Source: an uncultured Actinomycetes bacterium
Lineage (GTDB): Bacteria > Actinomycetota > Actinomycetes > S36-B12 > CAIYMF01
Assembly: GCA_963753075.1 (NCBI GenBank)
Contig: CAVWAR010000003.1
Coordinates: 8,299-72,298, forward strand
Reading direction: 5' to 3'
Length of the DNA stretch: 64,000 bases
The notes under the pieces were generated by a model. That model saw only the letters and a program-made list of their open reading frames with translations. It was not told where the DNA came from and did no database searches. How positions within the stretch are numbered: position 1 is the stretch's first letter; the number at the start of each line of letters is the position of its first letter. The translations under genes and the position numbers were made by a program. This document shows positions 187 through 52,732 of this stretch, one piece after another.

Positions 187-264
187 CCTTCTTGGTCGTG
201 TGGGGCCAGCTCGGGTTGACACACTCGACACCGCCGAGCGAGGAAGACTTCGACAGTCGCGGGC

Positions 265-279
265 GCGTCATTGCGCCGC
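265..279 (+). repeat. short GC-rich motif family member
   Basis: GCGTCATTGCGCCGC, identical to 22042-22056. Followed by CTGCTGGGCGCC, which can pair with GCGCC. Confidence 0.6.
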
Positions 280-387
280 CTGCTGGGCGCCCTCGATCAC
301 GACGAGTTCGCGGGCAGGGACATCGCGGGATATCCCAGAGGCCCCGATCACCGGTAGCGTCACGTTCCCGACTTCAATGGAGGAGAC

Positions 388-759: not shown

Positions 760-944
760 CGCGGTCCATCGGCCACCGAGTGCGGCGAGACTCCTGACCG
801 AAGCTCACGCGTTGCGGGTTCCGCCGGCCGGGCCGCGCTCCTCACGCTCCAGGTGCCCCCTATCGCCGCCTGTGGACGCACCGTGGGCCTTGCGTCACAG
901 CGCTCACGAAGACGCGGCATCAAACTTGGGGCGCTCAAGTCCGC

Positions 945-1772
945 CTAGCTGTTCGCCACCGCGAAGGTGACGTCGTCGGCCTGCGGGTCGAGCCCAGCCA
1001 GCACCCCTCGGTGCAGGGACACGTCGGCGAATCCCGCCTCGGCGAGCATCGAGTGGATCGTGTCCTCGGTGAAGCAGTGCTCCCAGACGTCGAAGCGGAG
1101 CACCTCCCTTTCGGTCAGCAGCGTGTACCGGATCCGCTGTGCCAGCACCTGCGGCTCGGCCGTTGTCTCGCTGAGCACCAGGTGGGGACCGGGGGCCCAG
1201 AACCCGCTGGTTGCCGACGCTTCCCAGCCGCGGCCTGGCCGATGCCGGTCGGCCACGGCCGAGTGCAGGTAGTCGAGCACCAGCTGGCCACCGGGCCGCA
1301 ACCGCCTTCGGACCTCGCGGAGCAGCGCGCGCTGCACCTGAGGTAGGTGCGTGCCAAAGTCCAAGTAGATGAGCATGGCCAGGTCGAACGGGCCCGTGGG
1401 CAGGTCGCGCGTGTAGTCGGCCTCGACGTACTGGAGACGACCCCGGACGTGTTGCCGTGCGTACTCGATGGACGCCTGGTTGAAGTCCACGCCGGTCACG
1501 TCGAAGCCGTCGTCGGCCAACTGCTGGGCGTAACGGCCCGGGCCGCACCCCAGGTCCAGCACGGACGCGCCGGGCGCAAGTCCTGCGGTCAGCAGGTCGA
1601 TCGTGCGTCGCACGGCCTCCGGGCTGCGGGTCGCTGCTGTGGTGGAGTCGTCGAGGTGCACGGCCAGGAGTTGCCGCTGGATGTGCGGATCCCGCCAGAT
1701 CGAGCCCCCGCTGTGCTCACCCGAGCCGGACGATAGGTCGGCGAGCAGGTGCGGATCGAGGGAAATGGCCAT
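945..1772 (-). CDS. class I SAM-dependent methyltransferase
   Basis: 275-aa ORF with SAM-binding motif VLDLGCGPGRYAQQLADDGFDVTGVDFN and downstream motifs (LAMLIYLDF, PGGQLVLD). Confidence 0.85.
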   Translation of the reverse strand: MAISLDPHLLADLSSGSGEHSGGSIWRDPHIQRQLLAVHLDDSTTAATRSPEAVRRTIDLLTAGLAPGASVLDLGCGPGRYAQQLADDGFDVTGVDFNQASIEYARQHVRGRLQYVEADYTRDLPTGPFDLAMLIYLDFGTHLPQVQRALLREVRRRLRPGGQLVLDYLHSAVADRHRPGRGWEASATSGFWAPGPHLVLSETTAEPQVLAQRIRYTLLTEREVLRFDVWEHCFTEDTIHSMLAEAGFADVSLHRGVLAGLDPQADDVTFAVANS

Positions 1773-1897
1773 CCGGCCACGGTACGCCGGGGTCCAATCG
1801 GCTCAGCGGGTGACGACGCCCTCGCGCCGTCGGCTCCGCGGACCACCACTCCGGCGGCGGCCGTGCGCCACCCACGCCACCGCGGGGGTCCCCGGAC

Positions 1898-2143
1898 GTG
1901 TGGGAGAGTCGTGCCGTGGTCGCGGCTGCGTGGTTCGAGAGGATCGGACCCGGCGACGCCCAGCAGCTGGCCACCGACGTTGGCCCCGTCCCGGCCAACG
2001 TGGGCGCCGTGCTGCTCCTCGACGACGTCGACCCCGCCACGCTGGCGGCCACGCTCGCGGGGCGAGTGGTCGGGGTCCTCCGGATGCGGCAGCGCCTGCG
2101 GCGGGCTCCGCTGGGGGGGCGGGTCCCCGGATGTGATCCGTAG
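1898..2143 (+). pseudogene. possible N-terminal remnant of a wax-ester synthase/DGAT-like acyltransferase
   Basis: 81-aa ORF ...ERIGPGDAQQLATDVGPVPANVGAVLLLDDVDPATLAATLAGRV..LRMRQRL resembles only the first ~80 aa of WS/DGAT-type proteins. The rest of the family is absent before the next gene. Confidence 0.3.
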
Positions 2144-2259
2144 CGGCACAGACTCGTTGTTGCGGGCAGCCACGCCCACCCGGTCGCCGGCAAGGAGACC
2201 GCCCGACCCCAGAGGGCGCCCGCTACGCGGCGATGTGACCACCTTGGCCATATCGCGGG

Positions 2260-2523
2260 TCAGCGATGCCTGTAGATGTCTCGCCGATGGCCGACCGCCA
2301 CGACGAGGACCAGGAGTACTTCGTCGTGGATTTCGTAGACGATGCGGAAGTCGCCGGTGCGGACCCGCCACTCGCCGTCGCCGCCGACGAGCTTCTTGGC
2401 GCCGCTGGGGCGTGGCTGTTCGGCGAGGAGCTCGATCGCTGCCTGTATCCGGCGCCTCGCCGCAGGGTCGAGCTTGCGGAACTGCCGCAACGCGGCGGGG
2501 GCTACTTCGACGCGGTGGCTCAT
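2260..2523 (-). CDS. type II toxin, RelE/ParE family
   Basis: 87-aa ORF with core ...GDGEWRVRTGDFRIVYEIHDEVLLVLVVAVGHRRDIY. Its start overlaps the stop of the upstream antitoxin gene by 4 nt. Confidence 0.85.
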   Translation of the reverse strand: MSHRVEVAPAALRQFRKLDPAARRRIQAAIELLAEQPRPSGAKKLVGGDGEWRVRTGDFRIVYEIHDEVLLVLVVAVGHRRDIYRHR

Positions 2524-2783
2524 GTCAGGCCGAGGTCGGCCTTGACATCCTCCCAGGGGATCGCGGGCTGCCCACCGCCGATCTCTTCGCGGGCCGCTCG
2601 CGCGGCTTCGATGTCAGCGAGGTCCTCCGCCGCGGCGATGAGCAGGCCCAGGTCCTCGGCATCGATGACCGCCGCGACCCGCTGCCCACGCCGGGTCAAG
2701 TAGACCGGGTCATGCTGTACGCGAGCGGCGTCCACGACCTCGGCCAAGCGGGCGCGCGCATCGCTGACGGTGATCTCACTCAT
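2520..2783 (-). CDS. type II antitoxin, Phd/YefM family
   Basis: 87 aa from ATG at 2783-2781. MSEITVSDARARLAEVVDAARVQHDPVYLTRRGQRVAAVI is the Phd/YefM N-terminal domain. ORF-track entry 2520..3407 is an upstream over-extension. Confidence 0.85.
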   Translation of the reverse strand: MSEITVSDARARLAEVVDAARVQHDPVYLTRRGQRVAAVIDAEDLGLLIAAAEDLADIEAARAAREEIGGGQPAIPWEDVKADLGLT

Positions 2784-2933
2784 GCAGCAAGAGTACCAGC
2801 GTGAGCGCGCTTTTGTACAATACAGCGCAAACCCGTCGGTGACGGCGAGACGCAATCTGCGCGTCCACAGGCGGCGCAATGACGCAGTGGCCTCCGCGAT
2901 TGGTGGGACAAGCATCGGTGGCAGGCTCCTGGC

Positions 2934-3612: not shown

Positions 3613-4296
3613 GCGTTGAGACGCACGGCGGGGGTCGCGGCGTTGACCCGTAGCAGGTGAGGCTCGAGCCCACCGGTGACCCGCAGCACGGTCACGGACC
3701 CATCCCAATCTCGGCTGAACCCGCGCGCCCGACTGGCGGCCGGAATGGGGCACCCTCAGACTGGGCCCGTTGGGGCGCTCAATGCCGCTCACTGGGTGGG
3801 GATTCTGAGGGTCGCACGAATTCCCGTTCACTGGGGTTGGGTTCGTCTCCCTCGGCGAGGATGGGGCGGCGATCCCGCCCAGCGCAGTCATCTCCAACTA
3901 CACCATCCTGCTGCCCGACTGAGTGAGATTGCGACGGCACATCACGCGGCTCCGCGAGCGGCGCCAGTTTGGCCCCACCCGTCGATCCCAGGGAGCAGCG
4001 TCCGGTTCGCCGCGGACAGTTGGGCGAGCGCGCTGCATCTCACCAGCCGGCGAGCAGCTACCACGCGGACATCTCTCCCACGGTGCTGGAACGTCACGGC
4101 CACATCCTCGGCCGTAGCGCCGGCGGGCGTGGCGTCGCTTCACGACAGGTGACCCGTGGGTTGGTGCTCGTCCCAATCATCGCTCGCCAAACGTATCGGT
4201 GGGTCACGGGATCGTTCGACCCTCCGGAAGCAGACCAGGCCACGGAGGAGATGAGCCATCCTCGGTGGGGCGGGCAAGGGCCGGGTCGGCCGTGCG

Positions 4297-6036: not shown

Positions 6037-8193
6037 TCACCAAATCCGGGTCAGGAACACGTCGTACTCGCCATTGGTGTCGTTGTCGACCAGGTCCGAC
6101 GCGTCCGAAGAGTAGGTGATCCACTGGCCGTCCGCGCTGATCGCCGAGGAGTACCACTCGCCGGTTGCCTGCGAGCCGTCGCTGCGGACCGAGACTCGCC
6201 GGGTGAGCCCGGTGTTCCAGTCGTAGAGGAAGAGGTCGTAATGGTGGTTGGTGTCGTTCTCGACCAGGTTCGTGGCTGACGACCAGTAGGTTGTCCAGCG
6301 GCCGTCGGCGCTGATCGCTTGGACGTAGGAGCCGCCTGGGGCCGCCAAATCGGGAATGGGGCCAATCGCCTGGCCGCCATCGCTGCGGACCGAGATCCGC
6401 CGGGTGAGCCCGGCTTGCCGGTCGTAGAGGAAGACGTCGGACAACCCATTGGTGTCGTCGTCGACCAGGTTCGCCGCCTCCGAGCCGTAGGTGATCCAGC
6501 GACCGTCGGCGCTGATCGTCGTACCGCCCGTGTAGCCGGTGGCCTGGTCGCCATCGCTGCTCACCGAGACCCTCCGGGTGAGCCCGGTGTCCCGGTCGAA
6601 CAGGAACACGTCGTACGTGTTGTTGGTGTCGTTGGCGACCAGGTCCGCCGCTTGGGACGTGTAGGTGATCCAGCGACCGTCGGCGCTGATCGCCGGCCCA
6701 CCGGATCTTCCTGTCGCTTGGACGCCGTCGCTGCGGACCGAGACCCGCCGGGTGAGCCCGGTGTCCCGGTCGTAGAGGAACACGTCCGGAACGCCGTTGG
6801 TGTCGTCGTCGACGAGGTTCGTCGCGTACGAGGTGTAGGTGATCCAGCGACCGTCGGCGCTGATCGCCGGCCCACTAGAGGTGCCTCCGGTGGCTTGGTC
6901 TCCGTCGCTGCGGACCGAGACCCGCCGGGTGAGCCCGGTGTCCCGGTCGTTGAGGAACACGTCCGGAACGCCGTTGGTGTCGTCGTCAACGAGGTTCGTC
7001 GCGTACGAGGTGTAGGTGATCCAGCGACCGTCGGCGCTGATCGCCGGCCCACTAGAGGTGCCTCCGGTGGCTTGGTCTCCGTCGCTGCGGACCGAGACCC
7101 GCCGGGTGAGCCCAGTGTTCCGGTCGTAGAGGAACACGTCGGGAACGCCGTTGGTGTCGTCGTCGACCAGGTTGGATTCGGCCGAGATGTAGGCGATCCA
7201 CCGGCCGTCGGCGCTGATCGCAGGGCTGGAGGAGTGGCCGGTGGCTTGGCTGCCGTCGCTGAGGACAGATACCCGGGTGAGGTCCATGACTGAGGGTCCG
7301 AGCGTGCGGGTGGTCAGCGCGGCGCCGGGGCTGGTGTTGCCGGTGGCGTCGCGGGTGAACACCGCGTACGTGAGCGGAGTGTCGACCGGCAGGCCGGCAT
7401 CGGTGGCCGAGGCCGCCGTCGCCGAGGTCAGGGCTACCGTGGCACCGTCAGTCGGGGTCTCCGGGACGGTTGTGCCGGTCGCGCGGCGCACGATCACCGT
7501 GGCCAGGTCCGCGTCTGCCGGGTTCGTCCACACCAGGTTGATGCTCGTCGCGGTCGGGTCCACCACGGCCAGACCGGTCACCACACCCGGTGCCGTCGTA
7601 TCCGGCAGGATCGGTGGGGGTGGCGTTGTGGGCGGAGGTGTCGACGGGGGCGGCGTCGGCGGCGCAGGTGGCGGGATGGGGGTTGTTGGGGTGGTGGGGG
7701 TGAATCGGTAGGCCTTGGTGGTCACCTTCCGGTACCCGGGGCGGGCGTACACCTTCACCCGGTACTTGCCCTTCTTCACCTTGAGCTTGCGGATCTCGGA
7801 CTTCCCCCGGGTCCGGTAGATCCCGACCTTGCGCCACTTGCCCCTGGACTTGCGCTGCAGCTTGAACTTCCAGTTCTTCTTCCCCCGCAGGTCCGGATCG
7901 ATGTTCACCACCAGCCTCTTCTTGCTGGCGAACGCCACCCGCGGCCGCTTCTTCTTCTTGGCCATCGGCACCACCACCGTAGGTGGGCCCGCCGGTGCCG
8001 CGGCCACGAACTGAGGCACCGATCCCGGCACCCCGGGACTGGTCCCGACCACCGGTGGGGCGCTGACCAAGCCCGCGACCATCACCCCGGCAAGCACCGC
8101 CCCGAACCCAGACCGCCGGCCACGCCGCCCGCGGCGGCCACCCGCGCCGTGCGGGTGATTCCCAGGATCCGCTGCACGTGATTGGCCCGACAT
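6037..8193 (-). CDS. surface protein: basic N-terminal domain, Pro-rich linker, FN3 domain, seven PD40/TolB-like beta-propeller blades
   Basis: Start at ATG 8193-8191 (MSGQSRAAD..., TM/signal GFGAVLAGVMVAGLVSAPP). Lys/Arg-rich segment KKKKRPRVAF...KVKKGKYRVKVYARPGYRK. FN3-like LAVVDPTATSINLVWTNPADADLATVIVRR. Seven units of ISADGRWITY..NLV.DDTNG..DVFLYDR.TGLTRRVSV. Confidence 0.75.
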   Translation of the reverse strand: MSGQSRAADPGNHPHGAGGRRGRRGRRSGFGAVLAGVMVAGLVSAPPVVGTSPGVPGSVPQFVAAAPAGPPTVVVPMAKKKKRPRVAFASKKRLVVNIDPDLRGKKNWKFKLQRKSRGKWRKVGIYRTRGKSEIRKLKVKKGKYRVKVYARPGYRKVTTKAYRFTPTTPTTPIPPPAPPTPPPSTPPPTTPPPPILPDTTAPGVVTGLAVVDPTATSINLVWTNPADADLATVIVRRATGTTVPETPTDGATVALTSATAASATDAGLPVDTPLTYAVFTRDATGNTSPGAALTTRTLGPSVMDLTRVSVLSDGSQATGHSSSPAISADGRWIAYISAESNLVDDDTNGVPDVFLYDRNTGLTRRVSVRSDGDQATGGTSSGPAISADGRWITYTSYATNLVDDDTNGVPDVFLNDRDTGLTRRVSVRSDGDQATGGTSSGPAISADGRWITYTSYATNLVDDDTNGVPDVFLYDRDTGLTRRVSVRSDGVQATGRSGGPAISADGRWITYTSQAADLVANDTNNTYDVFLFDRDTGLTRRVSVSSDGDQATGYTGGTTISADGRWITYGSEAANLVDDDTNGLSDVFLYDRQAGLTRRISVRSDGGQAIGPIPDLAAPGGSYVQAISADGRWTTYWSSATNLVENDTNHHYDLFLYDWNTGLTRRVSVRSDGSQATGEWYSSAISADGQWITYSSDASDLVDNDTNGEYDVFLTRIW
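6781..7134. repeat. 177-bp tandem duplication inside the PD40 gene (blades 2 and 3)
   Basis: 6781-6957 and 6958-7134 differ at about 4 positions by my alignment; the other blades are much more diverged. Confidence 0.85.
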
Positions 8194-9497: not shown

Positions 9498-9514
9498 GGC
9501 CGATAGGCCGCCTA
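9498..9514. repeat. short GC-rich motif family member (CGATAGGCCGCCTA), cut by IS630
   Basis: GGCCGATAGGCCGCCTA ends at the TA where the IS630 left end begins. An intact version would be the palindrome CGATAGG-CCG-CCTATCG. Confidence 0.5.
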
Positions 9515-10558
9515 CTAGTGTCGTGCGGCATTAGTTCCTTGACAGTTGCGTGGGGGTGCGGGATGCTGTGGCATGCCGTTGATGACGCAGGTGCTGCAAC
9601 TGGATGACGACGACCGGGCGACCTTGGAAGCGTGGTCGAGGTCGACCGCGATCCGGGCCGGGTTGGTGACCCGGGCGCGGATCGTGCTGGCCGCAGCCGA
9701 CGGGCTGGGCACGACGGAGACCGCCCACAGGGTGGGGGTGTCGCGGCCAACGGTGATCCAGTGGCGCGACCGGTACCTGGAGCAAGGCTTGGCCGGGTTG
9801 GACGACGCGCCGCGGTCGGGGCGGCCGAAAGAGGTCGACGAGGCCGCGATCCTGGCCGCGACGCTGGACCCGCCGCCGGAGAGGTTGGGGGTGACGCACT
9901 GGTCGACCCGGCTGCTGGGCGCCCACCTGGGGATCTCGGATGCCACGGTGGCCCGCTGCTGGCGCAAGTACCTGCTGCAGCCGTGGCGACGGGGTGCGTT
10001 CAAGTTCTCCACCGACCCGCAGTTGGAGGCCAAGATCCGCGATGTCGTCGGGCTGTATCTGAACCCGCCGACCAACGCGATCGTGCTGTGCGTGGATGAG
10101 AAGTCCCAGATCCAGGCCCTGGACCGGACCGCCCCGATCCTGCCGATCCGCCCCGGGCTGCCGGAGAAGGCCACCCACGACTACAAGCGCAACGGCACCA
10201 CGACGCTGTTCGCCGCCCTCGAGGTGGCCACCGGGAAGGTGACCGATCAGTGCTATGACCGGCACGGCAAGGCCGAGTTCCTCGATTTCATGAAGAAGGT
10301 CGCCCGCGCCTACCCCGACCAGGAACTGCGCGTTGTCGTGGACAACTACCACACCCACAAGCACGCTGAGATCAACGCGTGGCTCGAGAAGAACCCACGG
10401 ATCACGCTGCACTTCACCCCGACATCGGGGTCGTGGCTGAATCTGGTCGAGGTGTTCTTCGGGATCATCACCCGCCAAGCCATCCGCCGCGGCACCTTCG
10501 CCAGCGTCAAGGAACTCGTCACCGCGATCAGCACGTTCATCGACGGCTGGAACGACCG
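9515..10558 (+). mobile_element. IS630-family element, 3'-truncated
   Basis: Left end follows a TA dinucleotide (9513-9514), the usual IS630/Tc1 target. The transposase ORF stops matching the family at about 10558, where otsB-like sequence starts. No right inverted repeat present. Confidence 0.7.
9573..10558 (+). pseudogene. IS630-family transposase, lacking the C-terminal ~25-30 aa
   Basis: MPLMTQVLQLDDDDRATLEAW..., HTH (RPTVIQWRDRYLEQG), DDE region (CVDEKSQIQALDR ... VVDNYHTHKH ... HFTPTSGSWLNLVE). Ends at ...FIDGWNDR and then reads out of frame through otsB-derived DNA. Confidence 0.8.
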
Positions 10559-11308
10559 CTGGCGGAGTTCCTGGACTTCGACGGCACGCTCTCCCCGATC
10601 GTCGAGCAGCCCGAGGCCGCCGCCCCCGCCACCGGTGCCACCGAGGCCTTGCGTCGGCTGGCCGCCCTGCGCCCAGTCGCGATCATCAGCGGACGCGACC
10701 TGCCCGACGTTCGCCGTCGGGTTGGTGTCGACGGGATCTGGTACGCCGGAAGCCACGGGTTCCAGTTGGCCGGCCCAGCTGGGCAGACCCATGAGTACGA
10801 GGGCGCTAGCGCAGTCACGGAGGCCCTGGATGAGGCCGAACGCGAGCTCCAGGAGCGCCTCGGCGACATTGCCGGTGCGCAAGTCGAGCGGAGGAAGTAC
10901 TCCGTGACGTCGCACTGCCGCAGGGTGTCTCCGGATCGCGCCGGCGAGGTGATCGACGTGGTTGCCGAGGTCGCCTCGCTGCACCCCGAGGTTCGTGCGA
11001 CCAAGGCGCGCAAGGCCGCAGAACTCGTACCGGACCTGACATGGGACAAGGGCCACGCCTTGCGGTGGTTGCTCAGACAGTTGGCACCGCCCGAGGTGCG
11101 CCTGACGCCCGTCTACGCCGGCGACGACCTGACCGACGAGGACGTCCTGGAGGCGATCTACGACGTGGGGTTGGGGATCGTCGTCCGCAGCTCAGAGCAC
11201 GGGGATAGTGAGACGGCCGCCCGCGTGGGTGTGGATGACCCTGACCAGTTGGTCGCGGCGCTGGGGCGGATCGCGGACCTGGTGCAATCCCGCGAGGTAG
11301 CGTCCTGA
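10559..11308 (+). pseudogene. otsB: trehalose-6-phosphate phosphatase (HAD, OtsB-like), 5'-truncated at the IS630 junction
   Basis: Frame of ORF 10379..11308 reads LAEFLDFDGTLSPIV (DxDGT HAD motif I), ISGRD (motif II), KG...YAGDDLTDED (motifs III/IV). No start codon or native N-terminus; everything upstream is IS630. Confidence 0.65.
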
Positions 11309-15046: not shown

Positions 15047-15406
15047 ATGACTACATCGTCCGACAGACGGTATGCTGCTGTCGTGGGCGAAGCGATCCAG
15101 TGGGACTCGGCGGCCATCGCGTACATCCGCTCCCGTGGCGAGCGCTACCCCGACGGCGTCGGCATCGAACCGCAGTGGACTCAGGAGGTCATGGCAGATG
15201 TGGACCTCCTGGCCCTCGAACCTGATCCGAAGTCCCGAATGGGGGCTTCGCGGTTCATCGGCCGCTCCCGATCCGCCGGACGGGTGCTCGTCGTGATCGC
15301 TTATCGCGACATGGACGGTGACCTGCACGGCATCAATGCCTGGCCCGCAACCGGCGGGGACCTGAAGCTGTACCAGCAAGGAGACGATGATGGCCAAGAC
15401 GATTGA
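15047..15406 (+). CDS. putative toxin (BrnT-like), upstream partner of an RHH antitoxin
   Basis: 119 aa from ATG 15047 (a GTG near 15083 is an alternative). IQWDSAAIAYIRSRG...PDPKSRMGASRFIGRSRSAGRVLVVIAYRDMDGDLHGINAWPATGGDLKLY resembles the BrnT-type layout. Overlaps the next gene by 20 nt. Confidence 0.45.
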   Translation: MTTSSDRRYAAVVGEAIQWDSAAIAYIRSRGERYPDGVGIEPQWTQEVMADVDLLALEPDPKSRMGASRFIGRSRSAGRVLVVIAYRDMDGDLHGINAWPATGGDLKLYQQGDDDGQDD

Positions 15407-15635
15407 TCCAGCACTTGCCGAGCGACTCCGCCGCGAGTCCGAACAGACCAAGGACGACGCCTACCCCGCCGGCACGGCGGGCCGGCGGCCGAACCGCCAG
15501 AAGGTCTACTCCGTCCGGCTGAGCGCCGAGGAAGAGGCTGAGGTCCAAAGAGTCGCCGCGGCCAAGCACCTACCCGCGTCAACGCTTGTCCGGTCCTGGA
15601 TCCTGGAACGACTCGACCGAGAACGCTCCGCCTGA
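15387..15635 (+). CDS. ribbon-helix-helix (CopG/BrnA-like) antitoxin
   Basis: 82 aa. KVYSVRLSAEEEAEVQRVAAAKHLPASTLVRSWILERLDRE is a typical RHH beta-strand/helix-helix motif. Confidence 0.6.
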   Translation: MMAKTIDPALAERLRRESEQTKDDAYPAGTAGRRPNRQKVYSVRLSAEEEAEVQRVAAAKHLPASTLVRSWILERLDRERSA

Positions 15636-15727
15636 CCTGCCCCACGCCGCCGCCTGTCGGCATGCGGGCGACCAACACTGCTGTCTGCTCAGATTCGGGT
15701 GAGCGGATCGGCTCGCGCAAGGAACGC

Positions 15728-15751
15728 GCGTCCTTTCGCCGCCTATCGCGC
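15728..15751 (+). repeat. short GC-rich motif family member
   Basis: GCGTCCTTTCGCCGCCTATCGCGC, identical over 24 nt to 22991-23014. Confidence 0.7.
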
Positions 15752-16061
15752 ACCGTGCGGAAGGCATGACAGCGCCCAGATTGACGCGGCACCGAATATG
15801 GGCGGCTGGTGATGGCACGGGTGTCGGCCGGACGGTTCCGCCGGCCCGACCCGGTGACCCGGGCCTCGGTTGAGAGCAACTGCTGGTGCGCGCGGCCCGC
15901 TGGGTGTGGCCACGCAGGCCGTGCGGTATCACGCGATCTGGTCAGCCGAACGACACGGCTCGAGGGGATGGAGATCCACAGGGCGGCGAGGGACTCGCCG
16001 CTGACCTCCCCCCAAGCCTGAAATGCTCGCTCGGCCCTGCCCGAGTTGGGGTGGCCCGGCC

Positions 16062-19109: not shown

Positions 19110-19400
19110 AGCTCCTGTCTACGCTCACAGGGTGCGACGGCAACAGGGCCTTTGTGCCTTTCGATGAAGCTCATGGCCCCCCTCCCCGCCTAGCCGGGTT
19201 CAACGCCCGGGCGGCACGCCGAACGTGGAGGACGTTCCGCCGCGCACGATCGACGAGTGGCAGCGCCGGGTCCGGGTCCCCATAGAAGATCAGAGCACCG
19301 AACAGCCCGGCCGAGCCCCACAGGGTCTGGGTACCAAGATGGAGGCCGAGCAGCGCCGGGGCCCTCAAGACCCTGCGTGGCAGTAGCGCATTCGGGGGCT

Positions 19401-19426
19401 GCGTCCTAGCGCCGCCAGTGGACGCA
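19401..19426 (+). repeat. short GC-rich motif family member
   Basis: GCGTCCTAGCGCCGCCAGTGGACGC; the ends GCGTCC/GGACGC can form a 6-bp stem. Confidence 0.5.
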
Positions 19427-20300: not shown

Positions 20301-21873
20301 CCCATCGTCCCAGTTACGCCACCCCCAACCCCGGACACCACGGCACCGGGTGTCGTCGGCGGGTTGGCGGTCACCGGCCGGACCGCGACGAGCATCAGTC
20401 TGGCGTGGACGAACCCGGCAGACGCGGACCTGGCCGCAGTGATCGTGCGCCGCGCGGCCGGCAGCACGGCGCCGGCAACCCCAACTGACTGGGGCCGCGG
20501 TGGCCCTGGCCTCAGCGACAGCGGCCTCGGTCACCGATGCCGGTCTGCCGGTCGACGCCCGGCAGTCGTACGCGGTGTTCACCCGCGATACCACCGGCAA
20601 CACCAGCCCCGGCGTCCCACTGACGACTCGGACCCTCGGACCCTCAGTCAAGGACACCACCCGGGTATCAGTCCGCAGCAACGGCGACCAGGCAAACGGC
20701 TTCTCCTACGACCCGGCGATCAGCGAAGACGGGCGGTGGATCACCTACCACTCGGATGCGGCGAACCTGGTCGGCGGGGACACCAACACCGCGCACGACG
20801 TGTTCCTGTTCGACCGGACGAATGGAGTCACGCAACGCGTGTCCGTCCGCAGCGACGGTGGCCAAGCGACGGGCCACTCCTACGAGCCGGCGATCAGCGC
20901 CGATGGGCGGTGGATCACCTACAGTTCGGATGCGACGAACCTGGTCGACGGTGACACCAACGGCGCGGCCGACGTGTTCCTGTTCGACTGCAACACCGGG
21001 ACTACCCAACGCGTGTCCGTCCGCAGCAACGGCGCGCAGGCCACCGGAGGCTACTCCATGGAGCCGGCGATCAGCGCCGACGGGCGGTGGATCACCTACA
21101 GATCCGAGGCGACGAACCTGGTCACCAACGACACCAACGGCGCGGCCGACGTGTTCCTGTTCGACCGCAACACCGGGACCACCCAACGAGTATCGATCCA
21201 CAGCAACGGCGCGCAGGCAAACGACTACTCCTACCGGCCGGCGATCAGCGCCGACGGCCGGTGGATCACCTACCACTCGCGCGCGACGAACCTCGTCGCC
21301 AACGACACCAACAGCGAGTACGACGTGTTCCTGTTCGACCGCAACACCGGGACCACCCAACGAGTATCGATCCACAGCAACGGCGCCCAAGCCACCGGGC
21401 CCTCCTTCGCCCCGGTGATCAGCGCCGACGGGCGGTGGATCACCTACTCGTCGGAGGCGACGAACCTGGTCGCCAACGACACCAACGCGGCACCCGACGT
21501 GTTCCTGTTCGACCGAGACACCGGGACCACCCAACGGGTGTCGGTCCACAGCAACGGCAGCCAGGCCACCGGAGGCCGTTCATCCGAGCCGGCGATCAGC
21601 GCTGACGGCCGCTGGATCACCTACTACTCGTATGCGACGAACCTCGTCGACAACGACACCAACGGCGAGTTCGACGTGTTCCTGTTCGACCTACAGACGG
21701 AACTCACCCGACGGGTCTCGGTCCACAGCAACGGCAGCCAAGCCACCCTCAGCTCCACGAATCCGGCCGTCAGCGCGCACGGGCGGTGGATCAGCTACAC
21801 CTCGGACGCGGCGAACCTGGTCGCGAACGACACGAACAGCCAGACCGACGTGTTCCTGGCCCGGATGTGGTGA
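19794..21873 (+). pseudogene. PD40/FN3 surface-protein paralog, one frameshift
   Basis: MSGQSRAADPGNHQHG... reads in the frame of ORF 19581..20954 up to ...STAPATPTD. It continues as GAAVALASATAASVTDAGLPVD... with seven PD40 blades in the frame of ORF 20500..21873. One extra T near 20490 separates the frames. Confidence 0.75.
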
Positions 21874-22041
21874 CCGTGCGCACGCACTACCCTGGCCGCG
21901 CCTCGCGGTTCGCTGGGGGCAGGCCGCGGGCCCTCGACACCGACGGCTACGCCGACCTGGTGAGCGGGGCGCCGCTGGAAGCGGCCGGGAGCCTGGACTA
22001 GGCCGGACGGGTCGCGTCGGCATGAGCGCCGCCTGGAACCT

Positions 22042-22066
22042 GCGTCATTGCGCCGCGAAACGTGCG
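22042..22066 (+). repeat. short GC-rich motif family member
   Basis: GCGTCATTGCGCCGCGAAACGTGCG. First 15 nt identical to 265-279; 23/25 identical to 30338-30362. Confidence 0.7.
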
Positions 22067-22170
22067 GGGCTGCGACGGGCGACTCGGCACGCCGGATGCC
22101 GTGAAAGCCAGGCTGCCTCCCGAGGGCTGGGGCGGCTTTCCGCGGGGGAGGCGACCTCGGCCGGTTCGGC

Positions 22171-22602: not shown

Positions 22603-22990
22603 CTCACCGACAGGATTGATCGAGCGTTGAGCGCGGGCCCGGCCGGAGTCCGGTGCGGGTCGGCTGACCCGGATCGACCTGGCCACCGGCGATAAGAGCA
22701 CATTGGCCGACGGGCTGGCCACGGACGTCCAGGGGCCTGCCGCCCTGGTCGCCGGCGAGATGAACGGCGTGGCCGTGGACCGCACCGGCACCATCCTGGT
22801 CAGCGCTGCCGGTTCAGAAGGGAGCGTCGTCTACCGGATCAAGGCGGTCCCCGCTCGCTGAGGACTGCTTGCTCGAGCAAGTACGCCGCCCGAACCCACC
22901 GCCGTGGGCTCGGGCAGCCCGGTACCCTCAGAACCGGCCCGGTGTGGATTTCCGCCTTCTGGGTTCAGCGACCGGCTCAGATGGACGACC

Positions 22991-23014
22991 GCGTCCTTTC
23001 GCCGCCTATCGCGC
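22991..23014 (+). repeat. short GC-rich motif family member
   Basis: GCGTCCTTTCGCCGCCTATCGCGC in the lsr2 upstream region. Confidence 0.7.
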
Positions 23015-23342
23015 GCTGTCCATGGGGCTTCGGTGCAGCCAATGAGCCATCCAGCGCTGAGGAAGTCGACTTGTGTCCATTCTTCTGACCGCGCCGTCAC
23101 CCTTGATGGGAGTCCATCGAGGGAGGTTCGGGATGGCGCCACAGCGAATGCCGCTGGGACCTGATGCCGACCCCATGAGCAGTTCAGTCACCCTCTGCAT
23201 TTGCGGCATAACCTTGTGGCATCGCAGGGGCATATTCCGCCACGTTCTACCGGAATAGCTTCGACATTTCGACGAGAACCTTCCGACTCGCCCGACCCAA
23301 GTTCTACGCTGCTCTTGCCAGAGCAACTCCATTTCGCGAGGG

Positions 23343-23672
23343 GTGCCTCAGATGCGCAAGGTCCAGGTCATCCTGCAGGACGACATCGACGGTAGCGAAC
23401 CAGCACAGACCGTGTACTTCGCCGTGGACGGCAAGACCTATGAGATCGACCTGAGCGAACAGCACGCCGCAGCACTCCGCGATGCCCTTGCCCCATGGAT
23501 CGCGGCGGCTCGCCGAACCTCCACAACGCGAAACCCCAAGCCTCGAGCCACGTCGCAGGGGTCATCCGACACCGTCGACATCCGCCGCTGGGCCAAGGAG
23601 AACGACATCCCGGTCAGCGAACGCGGCCGCATCTCGATCGACTTGCGCAACCGGTACGAGGCCGCCCACTAG
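23343..23672 (+). CDS. lsr2: Lsr2-family nucleoid-associated protein
   Basis: N-terminal dimerisation domain (KVQVILQDDIDGSEPAQTVYFAVDGKTYEIDLSEQHAAALRDALAPWIAAARR), basic linker, C-terminal DNA-binding domain (IRRWAKENDIPVSERGRISIDLRNRYEAAH). ATG 23352 is an alternative start. Confidence 0.85.
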   Translation: MPQMRKVQVILQDDIDGSEPAQTVYFAVDGKTYEIDLSEQHAAALRDALAPWIAAARRTSTTRNPKPRATSQGSSDTVDIRRWAKENDIPVSERGRISIDLRNRYEAAH

Positions 23673-36565: not shown

Positions 36566-38367
36566 GCCTGGGGCTGTAGCGCTCACGCCGACTGCCGGAG
36601 ACTGCCTGCGCTCCGGGGAGTCCACCGGCAGAGTAGGCATCACGGGAGGATCGCGCGGATGCCGCAATCGAATCACGTCAAGGCTCGGCCGCCGTGGCTG
36701 CGGAGGTCCCCGACATGTGACGAACCAGATCGCGAACCCCGACGTGGGCATGCGCGTCGCCGACGGCATGGGAAGTCCCGACAACGTAGTGCCGGCTGAC
36801 GAGGTCGCGGTCCTGGCCGGCACCTCACACGCAACTTGGCGGCTGGCCGCGCGATGCGTCTATTCGCCGCGTATGACTGTCAAGCAGTGGCCGGATCCTC
36901 TGCAGCGCGCTCCCTCTCGCAGCGAGTACGGGATCACGACTGCACGGCCGGCCTCGGCCGCTTGAGCTACCGCGATGTCCCCCGACCACCGCTCAATCGA
37001 GCAGGCCGCGGCGTGCGACGTCGTGACCACGTCGATCCGCACGAGGTCCCTCACCCCTGGATGTCGGTTCAGTCGCATCTGATCGCGGAACGGGAGCACA
37101 CTGTTCATTGCGACCCAGAGCGTCCATAGTTGCGTCCGGCATGGTGGTGTACGGGTTGCCCGGTGATCGTGTCGCTACCGGCGTAGTGGCGGTCATCGCG
37201 TAGATCCTTCGAGTGATCTCTCACAACCGACTCGAAGAGGACGTTTCACGATGACCGCCACTCCCATTATTGACCCTGAGCAGTTCCTGCACGAGCAGTT
37301 GGCCCAGGCTTCCCCGGACCTGATGCGTGAGCTGTTGGCCACGTTCGTCAATGCCCTGGTCTCGGCGCAGGCTGACGTGGTCTGCGGTGCCCCGTACGGC
37401 CAGTCCAGCCCGGAGCGGACCAACTCCCGCAACGGCTACCGGCACCGTGACCTGGACACCCGGGTGGGCACGATCGACGTCGCGATCCCGAAGCTGCGCT
37501 CGGGGACGTACTTCCCCGAGTGGCTGCTGCAGCGGCGTCGCCGGGCCGAAGCAGCCCTGACCTCGGTGGTGGCCACCTGTTACCTGCTCGGGGTGTCCAC
37601 CCGGCGGATGGACCGTCTGGTCCAGTCGTTGGGCATCACCGGGCTGTCCAAGTCGCAGGTGTCGGAGATGGCCAAGGACCTCGACGCTCATGTGGAGGAC
37701 TTCCGGACCCGCCCGTTGGACGCCGGGCCGTACACGTTCGTGGCCGCGGACGCGTTGATGATGAAGGTTCGCGAGGGTGGGCGGGTGATCAACGTCGCCG
37801 TGCTCGTCGCGACCGGGGTGAACGCTGACGGGCACCGGGAGATCCTCGGCGTGCAGGTGAACACCGGTGAGACCGGGGCCGGCTGGTTGGCGTTCTTCCG
37901 TGACCTGGTGGCCCGCGGGCTGTCCGGGGTCGCCCTGGTCACCTCGGATGCCCACGCCGGCCTCATCGAAGCGATCGCCGCCACGCTGCCCGGGGCCAGC
38001 TGGCAGAGGTGCAGAACCCACTACGCGGCCAACCTGAGGTCGGTGACGCCGAAGAGCTCGTGGCCGTGGGTGAAAGCGTTGCTGCACTCGGTCTACGACC
38101 AACCCGACAAGGAGTCCGTGCATGAGCAGTTCGACCGGATCCTCGACGCCCTGACCGACAAGCTGCCGGCCGTCGCCGAGCACCTCGACGGAGCCCGGGG
38201 TGACGTGTTGGCGTTCACCGTGTTCCCGAAGGAGATCTGGCGACAGATCTGGTCCAACAACCCCATATCCGTTAACCGGCCCTCGGGCGACATCTGTGCT
38301 CAGCGGGGCTGGGGTCCCGCCCTGGTCGGGGGTTGCGGGGAAGGCTGGCTGGTGGGAGGTGGTCGCG

Positions 38368-39420
38368 GTGACGGTGAGCGTGGTCGACGACGGGAACGGG
38401 GTCCGGCTGGACGGCGACTGGGAGGGCGTGGCGGACGCGAACCGGTTCCTGGGGCACCTACGGGCGCGGGCGTTCTCCCCGGCCACGGTGCGGGCCTATG
38501 CCTTCGATCTGGTGAACCTGGCCCGCTTCACCGAGCAGCGGCGACTGCCGGTGGCCAAGGTCACGGCGATGGACGTGTTCGACTGGATCGACTGGCAGCG
38601 CACCGAGGTCCCCAACTCGGGCACGGTGGTGGAGTTGCGCCCGCGGGGCGCTGCGATCGCCACAGTGAACCGGCGGGTCGCCGCCGCTCGGGGCTTCTAC
38701 GGGTTCTTGGTGATGGCCGGCCAACTTGCGGTCAACCCGGTGCCGACCGGTCGGCGAGGTGCGGGGCTGCGCCCCGCGGCCCGGGGTGTGTTGGGGCATC
38801 TGGGTCCGGGTCGGCCCCGTGGTGGGGGCCGGCTGCTGCGTGAACCGAGCCGGCTGCCGGAGTCGCTGCCGCTGACCGAGGTCGGGGCGTTCCTGACCGA
38901 TCTGCGCTCTCACCGGGACCGGGCGATCGTGCTGCTGATGCTGTTCGGCGGCCTGCGCGCAGCGGAGGTCCGCGGGCTGCGGCTGGCTGATGTCGACCAG
39001 GGCCGTCGCCGGGTCCGGGTGCTGGGCAAGGGGTCCCGGGAACGGGTCGTCCCCGTCGACCAGGCGTTCTTCGCCGAGCTCGGTGCCTACCTGCGCCACG
39101 AACGTCCGGCCGGGTTGGCCACGCAGCAGTGTTTCGTGGTGCTGCGCGGCCCCACCGCCGGGCAGCCGCTGACCGAGGCGGGGATGCGTTCCCTGTTCCG
39201 CCGGCATCGGGACACCTCCGGGGCGGTCCGGGTCCGCCCGCACCGGCTGCGCCACACCTACGGCACCGAGTTGGCCGCCGCGGGGATCGACCTGCTCGCG
39301 TTGCGGGCGCTGATGGGGCACGCCAGCCCGGAGACGACCAGCCGCTACGTCCACCTGTCCGTGGAACACCTGGCTGCGGAGTATGCCGCCGCGAGCATCA
39401 CCCTGCAGGACCGGTCATGA
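38368..39420 (+). CDS. tyrosine recombinase (smaller subunit, TnpA-like)
   Basis: 350 aa from GTG 38368 (GGGAGG 9 nt upstream). SAM-like N-domain (FLGHLRARAFSPATVRAYAFDL). Catalytic LFGGLRAAEVRGLRL, PHRLRHTYGTEL, GHASPETTSRYVHLS. Confidence 0.8.
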   Translation: MTVSVVDDGNGVRLDGDWEGVADANRFLGHLRARAFSPATVRAYAFDLVNLARFTEQRRLPVAKVTAMDVFDWIDWQRTEVPNSGTVVELRPRGAAIATVNRRVAAARGFYGFLVMAGQLAVNPVPTGRRGAGLRPAARGVLGHLGPGRPRGGGRLLREPSRLPESLPLTEVGAFLTDLRSHRDRAIVLLMLFGGLRAAEVRGLRLADVDQGRRRVRVLGKGSRERVVPVDQAFFAELGAYLRHERPAGLATQQCFVVLRGPTAGQPLTEAGMRSLFRRHRDTSGAVRVRPHRLRHTYGTELAAAGIDLLALRALMGHASPETTSRYVHLSVEHLAAEYAAASITLQDRS

Positions 39421-41357
39421 GCCCGGCGTCCGCGGTCGCGGTCACCCGGTCACCGGGCCTGCTCGCCGATTACCTGGCGCACGTCGACGGGCTGGACCTC
39501 TCGGGCCGGGCCCGCCGAGACCGGCGGGTTGCCGCGACCCGGTTCCTGGCCACGTTCGGCGATCTCGAGGAGTGGATGGCCCGCCCGGCCCCGGCACGGG
39601 TGGTGGACCTCAAGCGCACCGGGGCCTGGCCGTTGGTCGTGTTCGCGATCGCCGGCGGGCACGTCCGTCTGGATCTGGAACTGGCCGGGGTGAAGAACCT
39701 GACCGGACTCGGGGCGGCGATCCGGGCCACCGACCCCGACGGGTTCGCCCGCGCCCAGGTCGCCGGACTGCGACTGGGCTGGGGCCAAGCCTGGGTCGAC
39801 ACCGTCCTGGGCGAGTGCCTGGCGGTGATCCTGGCCTGCACCGGGCGGCACCTGGACCAGCTCGACGACGAAGTGATCGACGCGTTCGACACCGACCTGG
39901 CCACGATGATGACGATCCCCGCCTCGTCGCGGCGGGCCTACCGGGCCCGGCTGGCCAGCCTGCGCCGGATCCTGTTCGAGCTACGGATCACCGATCAGCC
40001 GCCGCGTCGCCGGCCGTGGTCCCGCACGATCGAGCGGCGGTTCGACGACGTGGCCATGCCCGCCGAGATCCGCACCGTGCTGCTGCGCTACGTCCACGTC
40101 AGGGCCACCGTCCTGCGACCGAACTCGGTCGAGTCGCTGATCGATGACCTGATGCCGTTCGCCGAGTTCCTGCACGCCCACCACCCGCAGGTGGTCAGCC
40201 TGCGCCAGTTGAGCCGGGACCACATCGAAGAGTTCCTGACCTTCAACCGGCACCGGAACTGGCGGGGCCGCAAAGCCCGGCCGGTCCCGGTCAGCGACAG
40301 CGTCGCCCAGTCCGCGGTCCTGACCCTGCGCAACATGTTCGAGGACATCACCGCCTGGGGCTGGGCCGAGGCCCCCACCCGCCAACTGGTGTTCACGGCC
40401 GACATCCCGAAGCTGGGCCGCCCGCTGCCCCGAGCCCTGCCCCCGACGGTCGACGCCGCCCTGATGGCCGCGGTCGCGGACCTGCCCGACCTGTTCGCCG
40501 CCGTCGGCCTGCAGGTCCTCCGCGGTGCTGGGTTGCGCGTCGGGGAACTGCTGGACCTGGAATGCGATGCGATCCTGGACTACGGCCCGGCCGGGACCTG
40601 GCTGCGCGTCCCGCTGGGCAAGCTGGCCACCGAACGCGCTGTCCCGTTGAACCCGGGCACCCTGGCCGTGTTGGACTCGTGGGCCACCCAACGCGCTACT
40701 CACCGCCCGATCCCGCACCCCCGCACCGGGCGGCCCACCCACTTCCTGTTCACCGAGCACGGCCGCCGCCTCGGCGCGACCCGGCTACGCAACGGGCTGC
40801 AGAGCGCGATCCACACCGCCGGTTTGACCGATCCCACCGGAGCGCCGCTGCGGATCACCCCGCACCAGTTGCGCCACACCTACGCCACCGAACTGGCCAA
40901 CGCCGGCATGTCGCTGCAAGCCCTGATGGCGCTCCTCGGACACGTCACCTCCGAGATGACCATCCGCTACGCCACCCTGGCACCGACGACCCTGAACACC
41001 GCCTACGAGAACGCCGTCGCAGGGCTGCGCCCTCAGCTGCCGATCGCCGCACCCGCCCGGCCGATCATCCCGGACCGGATCACCTGGCTGAACGCCGAGA
41101 TGATCAAGACCCGACTCGGCACCGGGTACTGCGCCCGCCACCACGCCGCCGGGCCCTGCGACTACGCCAACATCTGCGAGACCTGCGACAACTTCACCCC
41201 CGCACCCGAGTTCGCCCCGGCCCTGGCCGACCAACTCGCCGACACCCGAGCCCTGCACGCAGACGCCGAGCAGCGAGGCTGGACCAACGAAGCGCAACGC
41301 CACCAACGCGTCAGCCACGCCCTCGAAACCCACCTCCGCCTCCTGCAACCCCGCTGA
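39417..41357 (+). CDS. tyrosine recombinase (larger subunit, TnpB-like) with Cys-rich C-terminal tail
   Basis: 646 aa. ATG overlaps the upstream stop (ATGA). Catalytic LRGAGLRVGELLDLE, PHQLRHTYATELANAG, GHVTSEMTIRYATLA. Tail GYCARHHAAGPCDYANICETCDNF. Confidence 0.8.
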   Translation: MSPASAVAVTRSPGLLADYLAHVDGLDLSGRARRDRRVAATRFLATFGDLEEWMARPAPARVVDLKRTGAWPLVVFAIAGGHVRLDLELAGVKNLTGLGAAIRATDPDGFARAQVAGLRLGWGQAWVDTVLGECLAVILACTGRHLDQLDDEVIDAFDTDLATMMTIPASSRRAYRARLASLRRILFELRITDQPPRRRPWSRTIERRFDDVAMPAEIRTVLLRYVHVRATVLRPNSVESLIDDLMPFAEFLHAHHPQVVSLRQLSRDHIEEFLTFNRHRNWRGRKARPVPVSDSVAQSAVLTLRNMFEDITAWGWAEAPTRQLVFTADIPKLGRPLPRALPPTVDAALMAAVADLPDLFAAVGLQVLRGAGLRVGELLDLECDAILDYGPAGTWLRVPLGKLATERAVPLNPGTLAVLDSWATQRATHRPIPHPRTGRPTHFLFTEHGRRLGATRLRNGLQSAIHTAGLTDPTGAPLRITPHQLRHTYATELANAGMSLQALMALLGHVTSEMTIRYATLAPTTLNTAYENAVAGLRPQLPIAAPARPIIPDRITWLNAEMIKTRLGTGYCARHHAAGPCDYANICETCDNFTPAPEFAPALADQLADTRALHADAEQRGWTNEAQRHQRVSHALETHLRLLQPR

Positions 41358-45625: not shown

Positions 45626-46020
45626 CTTTGGTCACAGTCACAGTCAATCTCCTTCGGTCAACGACCAACCTCCCTTACACAGACCATCTGACACGCTCTG
45701 ACCCTCTGCCGTCGGGCGCAGTGACGGGCGAGGCGAGCACGGAGTCGGTAGCGTGAGAGAGCCACGACGGCTACCTGCTGTCGACGATGCTGGCCGCAGA
45801 GACTCATCCCCGATCCACCACCAGGCGCCGCGTCACGTCTGCTCGGTGCAGTCACGATGAGGGTTGGCCCGGCCGACCCAGTCCTCCAGCGTCCCACCAC
45901 GCCCGCCACCGAAGTGCGTCGCTTTGGGCGGTAGCGACGCAGCCTCAGGGCGCCGGGGGAGTCCGGCCGTGGCTCTGTCAGACGCCGACGCCATTGGTCG
46001 CGATCGAGCCGTGAACCAGC

Positions 46021-46043
46021 GCGCGTTTCGCGGCGAAGTGGGG
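46021..46043 (-). repeat. short GC-rich motif family member
   Basis: Reverse complement CCCCACTTCGCCGCGAAACGCGC. Confidence 0.7.
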
Positions 46044-46098
46044 CACTCCGAACTCTGTGGCCGCGCTCGCGGGGGGTGAGCCGCCTGACTGCCTCTAC

Positions 46099-48265: not shown

Positions 48266-48748
48266 CCAGCACCCCGACAAGGCCGTGGATGCCTCGCTCA
48301 CGCGCCGACCCGTCGTCGATTGGCCCCGAGCGGGGCAACAACCGGGCATCGACGAGAACACCCCCGACGAAACCATCCAGCAGATCGAATCCCACTGGAA
48401 GAACAAGCTGCTCTCCCGCAGAGTCGCCCCAAATCGCAACTGACCAGGGCGCCCCGAGGGCCCTTGACGGGCACCGGCGGACCCCGGACCAAGGTCAAGC
48501 CACCCCAGTCGATGCCACTTCCCTGCTAGCCCTGCGATGCCCGCCTGAACGTGCCCAGCTCGCGGCGCAATGACGCACCGCCGCTGACCGGGACGGTACG
48601 CGGCGATGTGACGGGCGTGCCCGGAGTGGTCGCTGGAGTTGCGCAGCAATGCTCCCTCAGCTGGTGGGGGCGCTCTTGACAGGCCCTCGTGATGGGCAAA
48701 GCGAGACGGCTGGTGGTCGGGTACGCGCGGGCCGGTTCGGTGGGGCGT

Positions 48749-50571: not shown

Positions 50572-50869
50572 GCACCCATGACCGCGATCAGGACGACCCT
50601 GCTGGTGCGGCCCTAGGAGCCTTCGGGTCGCGGCGACAGCGCCAACTCACCCCACGAAACGCCCGCACTTGCCGCTGTGAGGGCCATTCTCAACTGATAG
50701 CGAGGTACCGGCTGAGCGCATCTCGAACGACGTCGCTGCCGGCGCCGTCCTGACTTCTGGCGAGGTGCTGCAGCGCGCTCAGAATGTCGTCGTCGGCTCG
50801 AATCCACTCATCGACCTGCCCCACAGTGGGCGACAAGGACGCGCCGCCGCCCCCGCTCGACCTGGGTAG

Positions 50870-50899
50870 CCCGATAGGCGGCGGAAGGCCGTAGGACGC
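50870..50899 (-). repeat. short GC-rich motif family member (with 7-nt insertion)
   Basis: Reverse complement GCGTCCTACGGCCTTCCGCCGCCTATCGGG; the plus strand reads GGTAGCCCGATAGGCGG. Confidence 0.6.
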
Positions 50900-51484: not shown

Positions 51485-51509
51485 GCGCCCGTTTCGCGGC
51501 GAAAGGGGG
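51485..51509 (-). repeat. short GC-rich motif family member
   Basis: Reverse complement CCCCCTTTCGCCGCGAAACGGGCGC. Confidence 0.65.
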
Positions 51510-51844
51510 CAGGTCCGGTTGGGGCCGCTTGCGTTGCGCGACAACGCAGCTCAAGCAGCCGAGTTGGGGCGTCGTCCGTGGCGTGAGCACGCCCGGGACG
51601 ATGGTCAACTGGCGAGTCGCTCTCGGGTGTCCCATAAGCGAGCCATGGTCGCGGTTCCGAGGACGTGGGCAGAGCCGATGTTCGTTGGAGGTCTCGACCG
51701 CCGCGGCACGTGAGCCGTCCAAGAAGGTGCCGCTGAGGTCGTGGGCACTTCGAGCAGGTGTCTTCGACGTGCCGAGATGCTCAACACGCTCGTGCCGCTT
51801 CACGCCGCCAGCACGGCGGGCGCGCCTTCGCCTTCCACGGGAGA

Positions 51845-52456: not shown

Positions 52457-52732
52457 CTGCGCCGGGCGTCATTCTGCACGCACGACGCCGTTCTGCCTCG
52501 CCCACAGCGCAACCGCCGCGCTCGTGGACACCCCCGTCTTGGTGTGGATGGGCTGGGCTGAAACGACGCTCGTGCGACCCAAGACCGCTCTCCTCGCGAT
52601 GCGTCCGCAGGCGGCGATGTGGGGCACCGTCCCTGGACGGGTTCGGTGGGCTGTGCGCACGCCGGTTGGGCTGTCTGGCCTGTGCCAGCATGGTTCATGA
52701 CGACGTTGAACACGCCATGGCCGGTATTGCAG

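Follow-up and report, generated by a model that had tools for sequence, protein, structure and literature searches.

A 64,000-nt stretch of DNA, referred to throughout as the window (C3:8299-72298 of a genome of 17 contigs, 3.85 Mb and 69% G+C; positions on its other contigs also carry the prefix C), has a short GC-rich motif scattered between its genes. The question raised by this locus is what kind of element the motif represents: the original prediction proposed either a REP-like family or a repeated protein-binding site. Insertion sequence (IS) similarities, together with the relatives found later, indicate that the genome is that of an actinomycete.

Abundance and anatomy of the motif

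The repeat family is genuine, as the exact core GCGTCMYTKCGCCGC occurs seven times in the window but not once in 100 dinucleotide shuffles. A 32-nt weight matrix, built from the aligned listed copies and iterated on the genome, identified 20 strong sites (score of at least 18.7) and two weak sites in the window and none in the reversed sequence (Table 1). Genome-wide, 121-131 sites were found compared with 2-4 in the reversed-sequence control, so the density is far above chance, as predicted. Both the matrix and the gene calls used below are home-made and trained on this genome, and the gene calls are rough, being based on codon usage.

All 11 full sites in the original prediction (those at 265, 15728, 19401, 22042, 22991, 30338, 32189, 46021, 50870, 51485, and 61868) were recovered in the same place and on the same strand. 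Nine sites were missing from that list: 849-880, 2860-2891 (exact core), 15633-15664, 34224-34255, 35865-35896, 36850-36881, 48551-48582 (exact core), 48589-48620, and 52600-52631. The three partial sites that it included are of uneven quality: 29589-29599 is a genuine half-site that has been split by an IS110 element, 9498-9514 is a plausible and probable half-site, and 54650-54663 is without support. The statement that all copies are intergenic agrees with the rough gene calls (122 of 131 sites genome-wide); the single "genic" site in the window (46019-46050) falls in a weakly called ORF, far from the end of that ORF's Pfam domain.

Alignment of the genomic sites shows that the conserved stretch is only approximately 28-30 nt in length, with an invariant CGCCGC inside it. 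Beyond this stretch there is no conservation: the DNA between sites is unrelated cargo and no conserved element with paired inverted ends is observed, which argues against the copies being the termini of a single IS or MITE. The hexamer had been described as being followed by either GAAACG or CTATCG. Both of these right halves occur, but the description is incomplete, as CTGTGG(ACGC) is the most frequent type and GAGTCG, GAATCG, and GTACCG are also present. The left-arm type (GT or CC) shares no mutual information with the right-arm type, the two being statistically independent. Dyad symmetry of the arms is weak, with its axis at the fourth core base and C and G conserved at +/-8. The sites are no more stable when folded than the DNA that flanks them (-10.2 versus -9.8 kcal/mol, p = 0.29). 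An Rfam scan of the window gave no match, and a plasmid BLAST search with 20 kb returned IS matches only.

Table 1. Motif sites and associated features in the window (positions are those of the window).
Feature	Position	Strand	Score or evidence
Cassette-boundary site, GCGTCATTG-CGCCGC-CTGCTGG	259..290	+	23.2; exact core match
Site; left boundary of 2.0-kb segment 99.75% identical to C14:6395-8406	849..880	+	30.7; homology starts at CGCCGC
Weak or degenerate site	2216..2247	-	11.6; reversed control has no match of 8 or more
Inverted site; right boundary of 2.0-kb segment, left boundary of C8-shared segment	2860..2891	-	28.7; homology breaks at GCGGCG
Probable variant site, core GGCCGC, arm 1 nt longer	3723..3754 (approximate)	-	Below matrix threshold; C8:43074-42205 paralogue ends within core
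Half-site (left arm + core + CTA), cut at TA by IS630-like element	9498..9514	+	Sequence
IS630-type DDE_3 transposase	9573-10907		IS copy common to C2 starts at 9517
Decayed remnant of 304-aa tyrosine recombinase, C-terminal ~100 aa	14736..15017	+	tblastn 48-61% identity to residues 204-303; weak Xer/IntI C-terminal matches
107-aa ORF, function unknown, one of the conserved 107-113-aa ORFs 3' of recombinase gene in several genomes	15083..15406	+	78% identical to L054 counterpart; no Pfam/NCBIfam match
Site closing decayed recombinase cassette	15633..15664	+	18.7; homology to recombinase cassettes of other genomes ends here
Site, CTATCG type	15722..15753	+	32.8; exact core match
Site; C14-shared 8.9-kb duplication ends at core	19395..19426	+	28.1; junction view
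Site, GAAACG type, copy named in the original prediction	22036..22067	+	29.9; exact core match
Site, CTATCG type	22985..23016	+	27.5; exact core match
Probable left half of IS110-split site, GGTAGCCCATTTTCAG	28091..28106	+	Sequence, other IS110 insertions compared; exact IS left end uncertain
IS110-family element inside site core	28143..29588	-	Pfam DEDD_Tnp_IS110 + Transposase_20
Right half of IS110-split site, CCGCCTATCGCACAC	29589..29603	+	Uninterrupted version at C10 near 65082; homology starts at core
Site; right boundary of C10-shared cassette	30332..30363	+	31.4; junction view
Site	32182..32213	+	32.5
Site; C17-shared segment ends 9.5 nt before core	34224..34255	+	25.7
Site	35865..35896	+	22.8
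Site, last of plus-oriented run	36850..36881	+	19.7
Site, first of minus-oriented run	46019..46050	-	29.4
Site; 38-nt mini-unit with 48589..48620	48551..48582	-	25.6; exact core match
Site, GTACCG type, 38 nt from 48551..48582 site	48589..48620	-	20.1; same 38-nt unit tandem in L069
Site	50867..50898	-	22.7
Site with full TTTCGC-C-GCGAAA inner palindrome	51485..51516	-	30.6
Site	52600..52631	-	27.1
Site, variant core GGCCGC	61865..61896	-	22.9

Arrays, homology breakpoints, and insertion sequences

The sites are clustered. Runs of at least three add up to approximately 250 kb, most of it on small contigs or at the ends of large contigs. Of 85 pairs of neighbouring sites, 81 point the same way (p = 1e-19), and the median distance between neighbours is 1.8 kb. 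Arrays take forms such as ++++++++++-------; the run in the window is plus-oriented up to 36881 and minus-oriented from 46019. This polarity ignores the genes: the upstream gene points the same way as the site in 59 cases and the other way in 45. Intergenic regions that contain a site have a median length of 486 nt, compared with 85 nt genome-wide, and the sites lie nearer the 3' ends of genes. Among the cargo found in the window and in related arrays are toxin-antitoxin pairs, glyoxalases, GNAT acetyltransferases, a methyltransferase, an alpha/beta hydrolase, a PadR pair, MarR, Lsr2, VapBC/PIN, and HepT-MNT pairs. The lsr2 gene, encoding a nucleoid protein of the xenogeneic-silencer type, is located amid the cassettes of the window (23352-23672).

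Two local arrangements depart from the usual spacing or polarity. The methyltransferase-bearing 2-kb segment 849-2891, which is identical on C14, is flanked by inversely oriented sites and is a candidate invertible segment or head-to-head cassette pair. The pair at 48551-48620 has the layout CGCCGC-GTACCGTCCCGGTCAGCGGCG-GTGCGTCATTG-CGCCGC, with its sites 38 nt apart. Five to six tandem copies of the same 38-nt unit lie just upstream of a recombinase gene (discussed below) in L069 (5665-5920), a locus of another genome, and several genomes have site pairs separated by 34-43 nt. These closely spaced units could represent empty cassettes or serve as accessory binding sites.

When the genome is compared with itself, segments shared between islands begin and stop at the CGCCGC core. 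Window positions 864-2876 match C14:6395-8406 at 99.75% identity with cores at both ends; C3:6095-6642 matches C17:1433781-1433235, also with a core at each end; an 8.9-kb duplication common to the window and C14 stops at the core of the 19395-19426 site; and window 29588-30359 matches C10:65082-64311. At each junction viewed, one arm and everything beyond it are common to the two copies while the other arm differs. Sixteen paralogue boundaries lie within 5 nt of a core compared with 0.75 expected (maximum of 4 in 1000 local jitters), and their offsets concentrate at -2.5 and between +2.5 and +4.5, corresponding to the two edges of the hexamer. Cassettes shared between genomes (88-99% identity, including L023 versus L068) also break at the core: in a Jiangellales metagenome-assembled genome and an unrelated uncultured actinomycete, two cassettes with core breaks are found in different order. 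Among site pairs with homologous flanks, 61 share only the left flank, 28 only the right, and 30 both.

The core breakpoints, the exchange of half-sites, and the independence of the arms together suggest that the motif is a site-specific recombination site and that the DNA between sites is a mobile cassette. Judged by comparison of the copies, core breakpoints and arm swapping are the signature of reciprocal exchanges recurring at a single position. The position of that exchange can be read to the core and no finer, since the core is the only invariant block; an apparent end of homology at the core would also be expected if the exchange took place a few bases away or via microhomology. Neither pairs of occupied and empty sites (A|B against A|X...Y|B) nor circular junctions were found among the compared loci.

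Insertion sequences provide a second view of the site, and they had been predicted to have landed in the motif. The IS110 element of the window has five copies in the genome, four of which run at their right end directly into CCGC followed by a right arm. On the other side, the best-preserved copies are preceded by a left arm and CG, which places the insertion point at CG^CCGC in constant orientation. Both halves of the site are seen at two independent insertions, and two more insertions abut a half-site on one side. This fixed insertion point is an independent mark of a discrete site, and we take it to parallel how IS1111-type elements behave at integron attC sites. In keeping with the same prediction, the TA of a CTATCG right half (9498-9514) is occupied by an IS630-like element.

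The array-borne recombinase

The genome contains 24 matches to tyrosine recombinases. A motif scan of public genomes revealed co-oriented arrays in Ornithinibacter, Phycicoccus, Nostocoides, and other Dermatophilaceae, in Nocardioides and Jiangellales, and in many uncultured Actinomycetota, and one gene recurs inside them: that of a 304-aa tyrosine recombinase that is 84-96% identical across genomes of different orders. In every one of the 18 loci examined, including those of four cultured isolates, it is located inside the arrays and points the same way as the sites. Pedococcus bigeumensis, Flexivirga endophytica, and Nocardioides aequoreus are among the cultured carriers. Among 41 related genomes, many of which are incomplete metagenome-assembled genomes, the median motif count is 14.5 with the gene or its remnants versus 1 without (p = 1e-6; within genus, p = 2e-4). 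Some genomes have 5-9 pattern matches and no detectable recombinase, and many of these are likewise incomplete metagenome-assembled genomes. An even 400-genome sample of the phylum gave no motif excess above background and no close recombinase homologue, indicating that the system is patchy and not general in the phylum.

The 304-aa protein has Phage_integrase (PF00589) and SAM-like (PF02899) Pfam domains. In an alignment to XerD (1a0p), the catalytic R, K (GKGNK), HxxR, H, and Y are intact (ALRASE, GKGNK, HSLRHA, ARHAD, and EHYDR). With catalytic R-K-H-R-H-Y residues, a SAM-like core-binding domain, and no arm-binding domain, it belongs to the simple Xer-like class. It is not an orthologue of XerC or XerD, scoring 101 bits against the NCBIfam XerC equivalog (cut-off of 335) and 86.7 bits against that of XerD (cut-off of 329.6), and it matches the IntI model (41.7 bits) in its C-terminal 60 aa only. 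More than 2,900 public clusters of close relatives are labelled only as "XerD" or "integrase".

The only full-length copy in this genome (C10:32238-33148) has a 1-nt deletion in a run of C, which could be genuine decay or an assembly error. Many copies in other genomes are fragments. Given these broken genes, the system could be in decay or the sites could be served by a different enzyme; its continued activity in this genome is putative. One truncated copy, L053 6309-6360, was considered as a case of site-mediated 5' truncation, and this was rejected: the copy has lost an internal segment, and its conserved 5' leader runs straight into approximately codon 60. Upstream of the recombinase ATG, at -25 to -8, a conserved GTCGCCGCGTGAGGTGA is found in L067-L073, in L054, and in the genome's own copy (C10:32213-32230). 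It resembles the core plus right arm and could serve as an autoregulatory pseudo-site, or be no more than the ribosome-binding region.

Two genomes of another genus (L080 5673-16917 and L083 366-16193) encode a relative with 43-44% identity to the 304-aa recombinase. There it shares the orientation of the arrays that surround it, which are built from a different, 38-nt repeat (AGAWCGGCAC...GGTGCKCGAGAAT). These arrays may constitute a sister cassette system, and the presence of a relative of approximately 44% identity in arrays of another repeat suggests a wider enzyme family in which each member has its own site.

Other recombinases are encoded in the genome. The pair at window 38296-41357 (374 and 646 aa tyrosine recombinases) was considered as the enzyme and rejected, being approximately 30% identical to the array-borne recombinase and part of a Tn554-related element. 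It is nested in, and interrupts, an IS256-family (Transposase_mut) transposase gene. Two-recombinase elements of this kind have been described in actinobacteria (PMC3414803); the window pair matches them and appears unrelated to the cassette sites. Two trios of adjacent tyrosine recombinase genes with the RIT (recombinase-in-trio) layout are found at C17:9081-11444 and C2:1223256-1225629, one of them within a cassette array.

Proposed mechanism, alternatives, and known systems

From the comparisons above, we consider it quite probable that the motif is a recombinase site bounding mobile one- or two-gene cassettes, with the array-borne 304-aa recombinase as the most likely enzyme. This judgement covers both statements jointly, and our confidence in the enzyme assignment alone is below that in the explanation as a whole. 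The site would be a 28-30-bp double-stranded sequence with loosely inverted arms, approximately GTGC(GT/CC)CAYWK on the left and SWRWSG(N)SSMC on the right, and strands would be exchanged at the invariant CGCCGC between them, the exact cleavage positions being putative. Directly repeated sites would split the islands into one- or two-gene cassettes, which face either way and contain their own regulatory DNA. A reaction between two sites would excise a circle bearing one hybrid site, and this putative intermediate could re-enter at any other site. Such excision and re-entry would produce a single orientation per array, independent assortment of the arms, the same cassette in unrelated contexts, and a stop in homology at the core. 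The predicted enzyme acting on these sites would be a dedicated, cassette-borne, Xer-like tyrosine recombinase of 304 aa that travels with them between Actinomycetota.

The cassettes could instead be moved at these sites by some other enzyme, such as host XerC/XerD (as proposed for pdif modules) or one of the RIT trios, with the 304-aa gene being common cargo. The genome does encode Xer-like proteins at C17:1103268 and C17:886172 in addition to the two trios, the array-borne gene is often broken, and there are genomes that have sites and no detectable copy of it. However, the chromosomal dif candidate at C17:772065 (minus strand; GTGACCGATAATGCACATTATGTAATGT) is AT-rich and unlike the motif, and the recombinase always shares the orientation of the sites whereas other cargo genes face both ways. 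Its presence also tracks site number, and recombinase and site are both conserved at approximately 90% across orders; we regard this reading as unlikely. Another reading is that the repeats are hotspots of short-homology or IS110/bridge-RNA recombination with no dedicated tyrosine recombinase: the invariant hexamer is the only shared block, any exchange inside it would look alike, and IS110 elements recognise the site. Six base pairs are nevertheless too few for RecA-dependent exchange, the conservation of arms on both sides of the core implies a bound protein, and the IS110 copies are few (5) and missing at most cassette boundaries. Strict array polarity also fits a directional site-specific reaction, and we consider the hotspot explanation improbable.

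Two further explanations do without recombination at the motif as its primary role. An operator for a regulator or nucleoid protein of island genes would be intergenic and partly palindromic, as the motif is, and lsr2 and several MarR and PadR regulators lie within the islands; the coincidence with breakpoints would then be secondary. Yet an operator would be expected to follow gene orientation or promoter distance, whereas the polarity here is array-wide and the sites are nearer gene 3' ends. A regulatory role explains neither breakpoints at the core edges nor the shuffling of half-sites, and we consider it improbable as the primary function. The earlier suggestion of a protein-binding site was nonetheless right in spirit, in that the motif behaves as a recombinase site. 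The accompanying REP-like reading, in which selfish REP/REPIN-like palindromes are spread by a RAYT-type transposase, is suggested by repeats that are short, GC-rich, partly palindromic, and extragenic, and REP/BIME elements are also targets of the IS110 family. We find it very hard to sustain: Y1_Tnp (PF01797) has no match in the genome under a search that detects it in 6 control genomes, there is no hairpin signal from folding and no covariation between the arms, and the copies are confined to islands with one polarity per array and breakpoints at the core.

The preferred explanation, a cassette system served by its own recombinase, has its closest analogy in integrons, among them sedentary chromosomal integrons and CALINs. 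Both have co-oriented arrays of small cassettes, the same cassette in other contexts breaking at the site, the involvement of a tyrosine recombinase, and cargo rich in toxin-antitoxin, GNAT, and glyoxalase genes. The differences are nevertheless substantial. No IntI is found here (the best score in the genome is 79.5 bits against a cut-off of 265 for TIGR02249). Integron attC sites are structure-defined hairpins of 57-141 nt, imperfect palindromes of variable sequence that the integrase binds in folded single-stranded form, whereas the sites here have a short conserved double-strand sequence with an invariant core and, as noted above, fold no better than their flanks. Integron cassettes are mostly promoterless, lie in one orientation, and rely for expression on Pc next to attI and intI. 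The cassette genes here face both ways and have their own upstream DNA, no attI/Pc platform is seen, the recombinase gene is inside a cassette, and there are many arrays per genome.

As described in PMC9771954, and according to the title of Blackwell & Hall (2017), pdif modules of Acinetobacter plasmids carry one gene or a few, together with their promoters, between arm-spacer-arm sites of approximately 28 bp, and are shuffled between replicons. The size of the site and the self-expressed modules are similar to what is seen here. In contrast, pdif sites mimic dif, alternate in orientation, and need host XerC/XerD, while the sites here are unlike dif, form direct repeats, and are accompanied by a dedicated recombinase; host Xer-like genes are present in the genome. 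Comparison with the dif candidate shows that the motif has no XerD-type arm. The Cre/lox, XerCD/dif, and Rci/sfx shufflon systems resemble this one in having a two-domain recombinase of approximately 300 aa with R-K-H-R-H-Y residues and an invariant centre with flanking arms. Rci/sfx sites additionally have one arm that is more variable, as do the sites here. These systems serve dimer resolution or inversion at a single locus, whereas the sites described here number in the hundreds and delimit mobile cargo.

On balance, the sequence data lead us to favour the view that this is a previously undescribed, integron-analogous form of gene capture, in which a cassette-borne Xer-like recombinase would move one- or two-gene cassettes at double-stranded 28-30-bp sites with a CGCCGC overlap in several lineages of Actinomycetota. 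Its arrays would occupy up to 6% of a genome, and the enzyme clade may be a family whose members each have their own sites. So far, carriers are known among Dermatophilaceae-type genera, Nocardioides, and Jiangellales and in many uncultured lineages from soil and sludge. A literature search found no description of such a cassette system. To our knowledge, integrons are nearly absent from Actinomycetota, so that the assembly of small accessory-gene islands in this phylum is without a comparable explanation.

If this view is correct, it would represent a second gene-cassette platform, with a different recombinase subfamily, simple sites defined by sequence, cassettes that provide their own expression, and numerous arrays in each genome. 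The "XerD/integrase" clusters mentioned above would gain a function, and mobile cargo in the genomes and metagenomes of actinobacteria could be marked out by a sequence rule. The compact recombinase and its 30-bp site could be tested as an engineering tool in high-GC hosts. What was a vague short repeat family would thus become a mechanism that is directly testable in cultured soil isolates.

Repeats of a different kind are also present in the window: two PD40 beta-propeller genes (6053-7275 and 20655-21830) contain internal tandem repeats of 174-177 nt.
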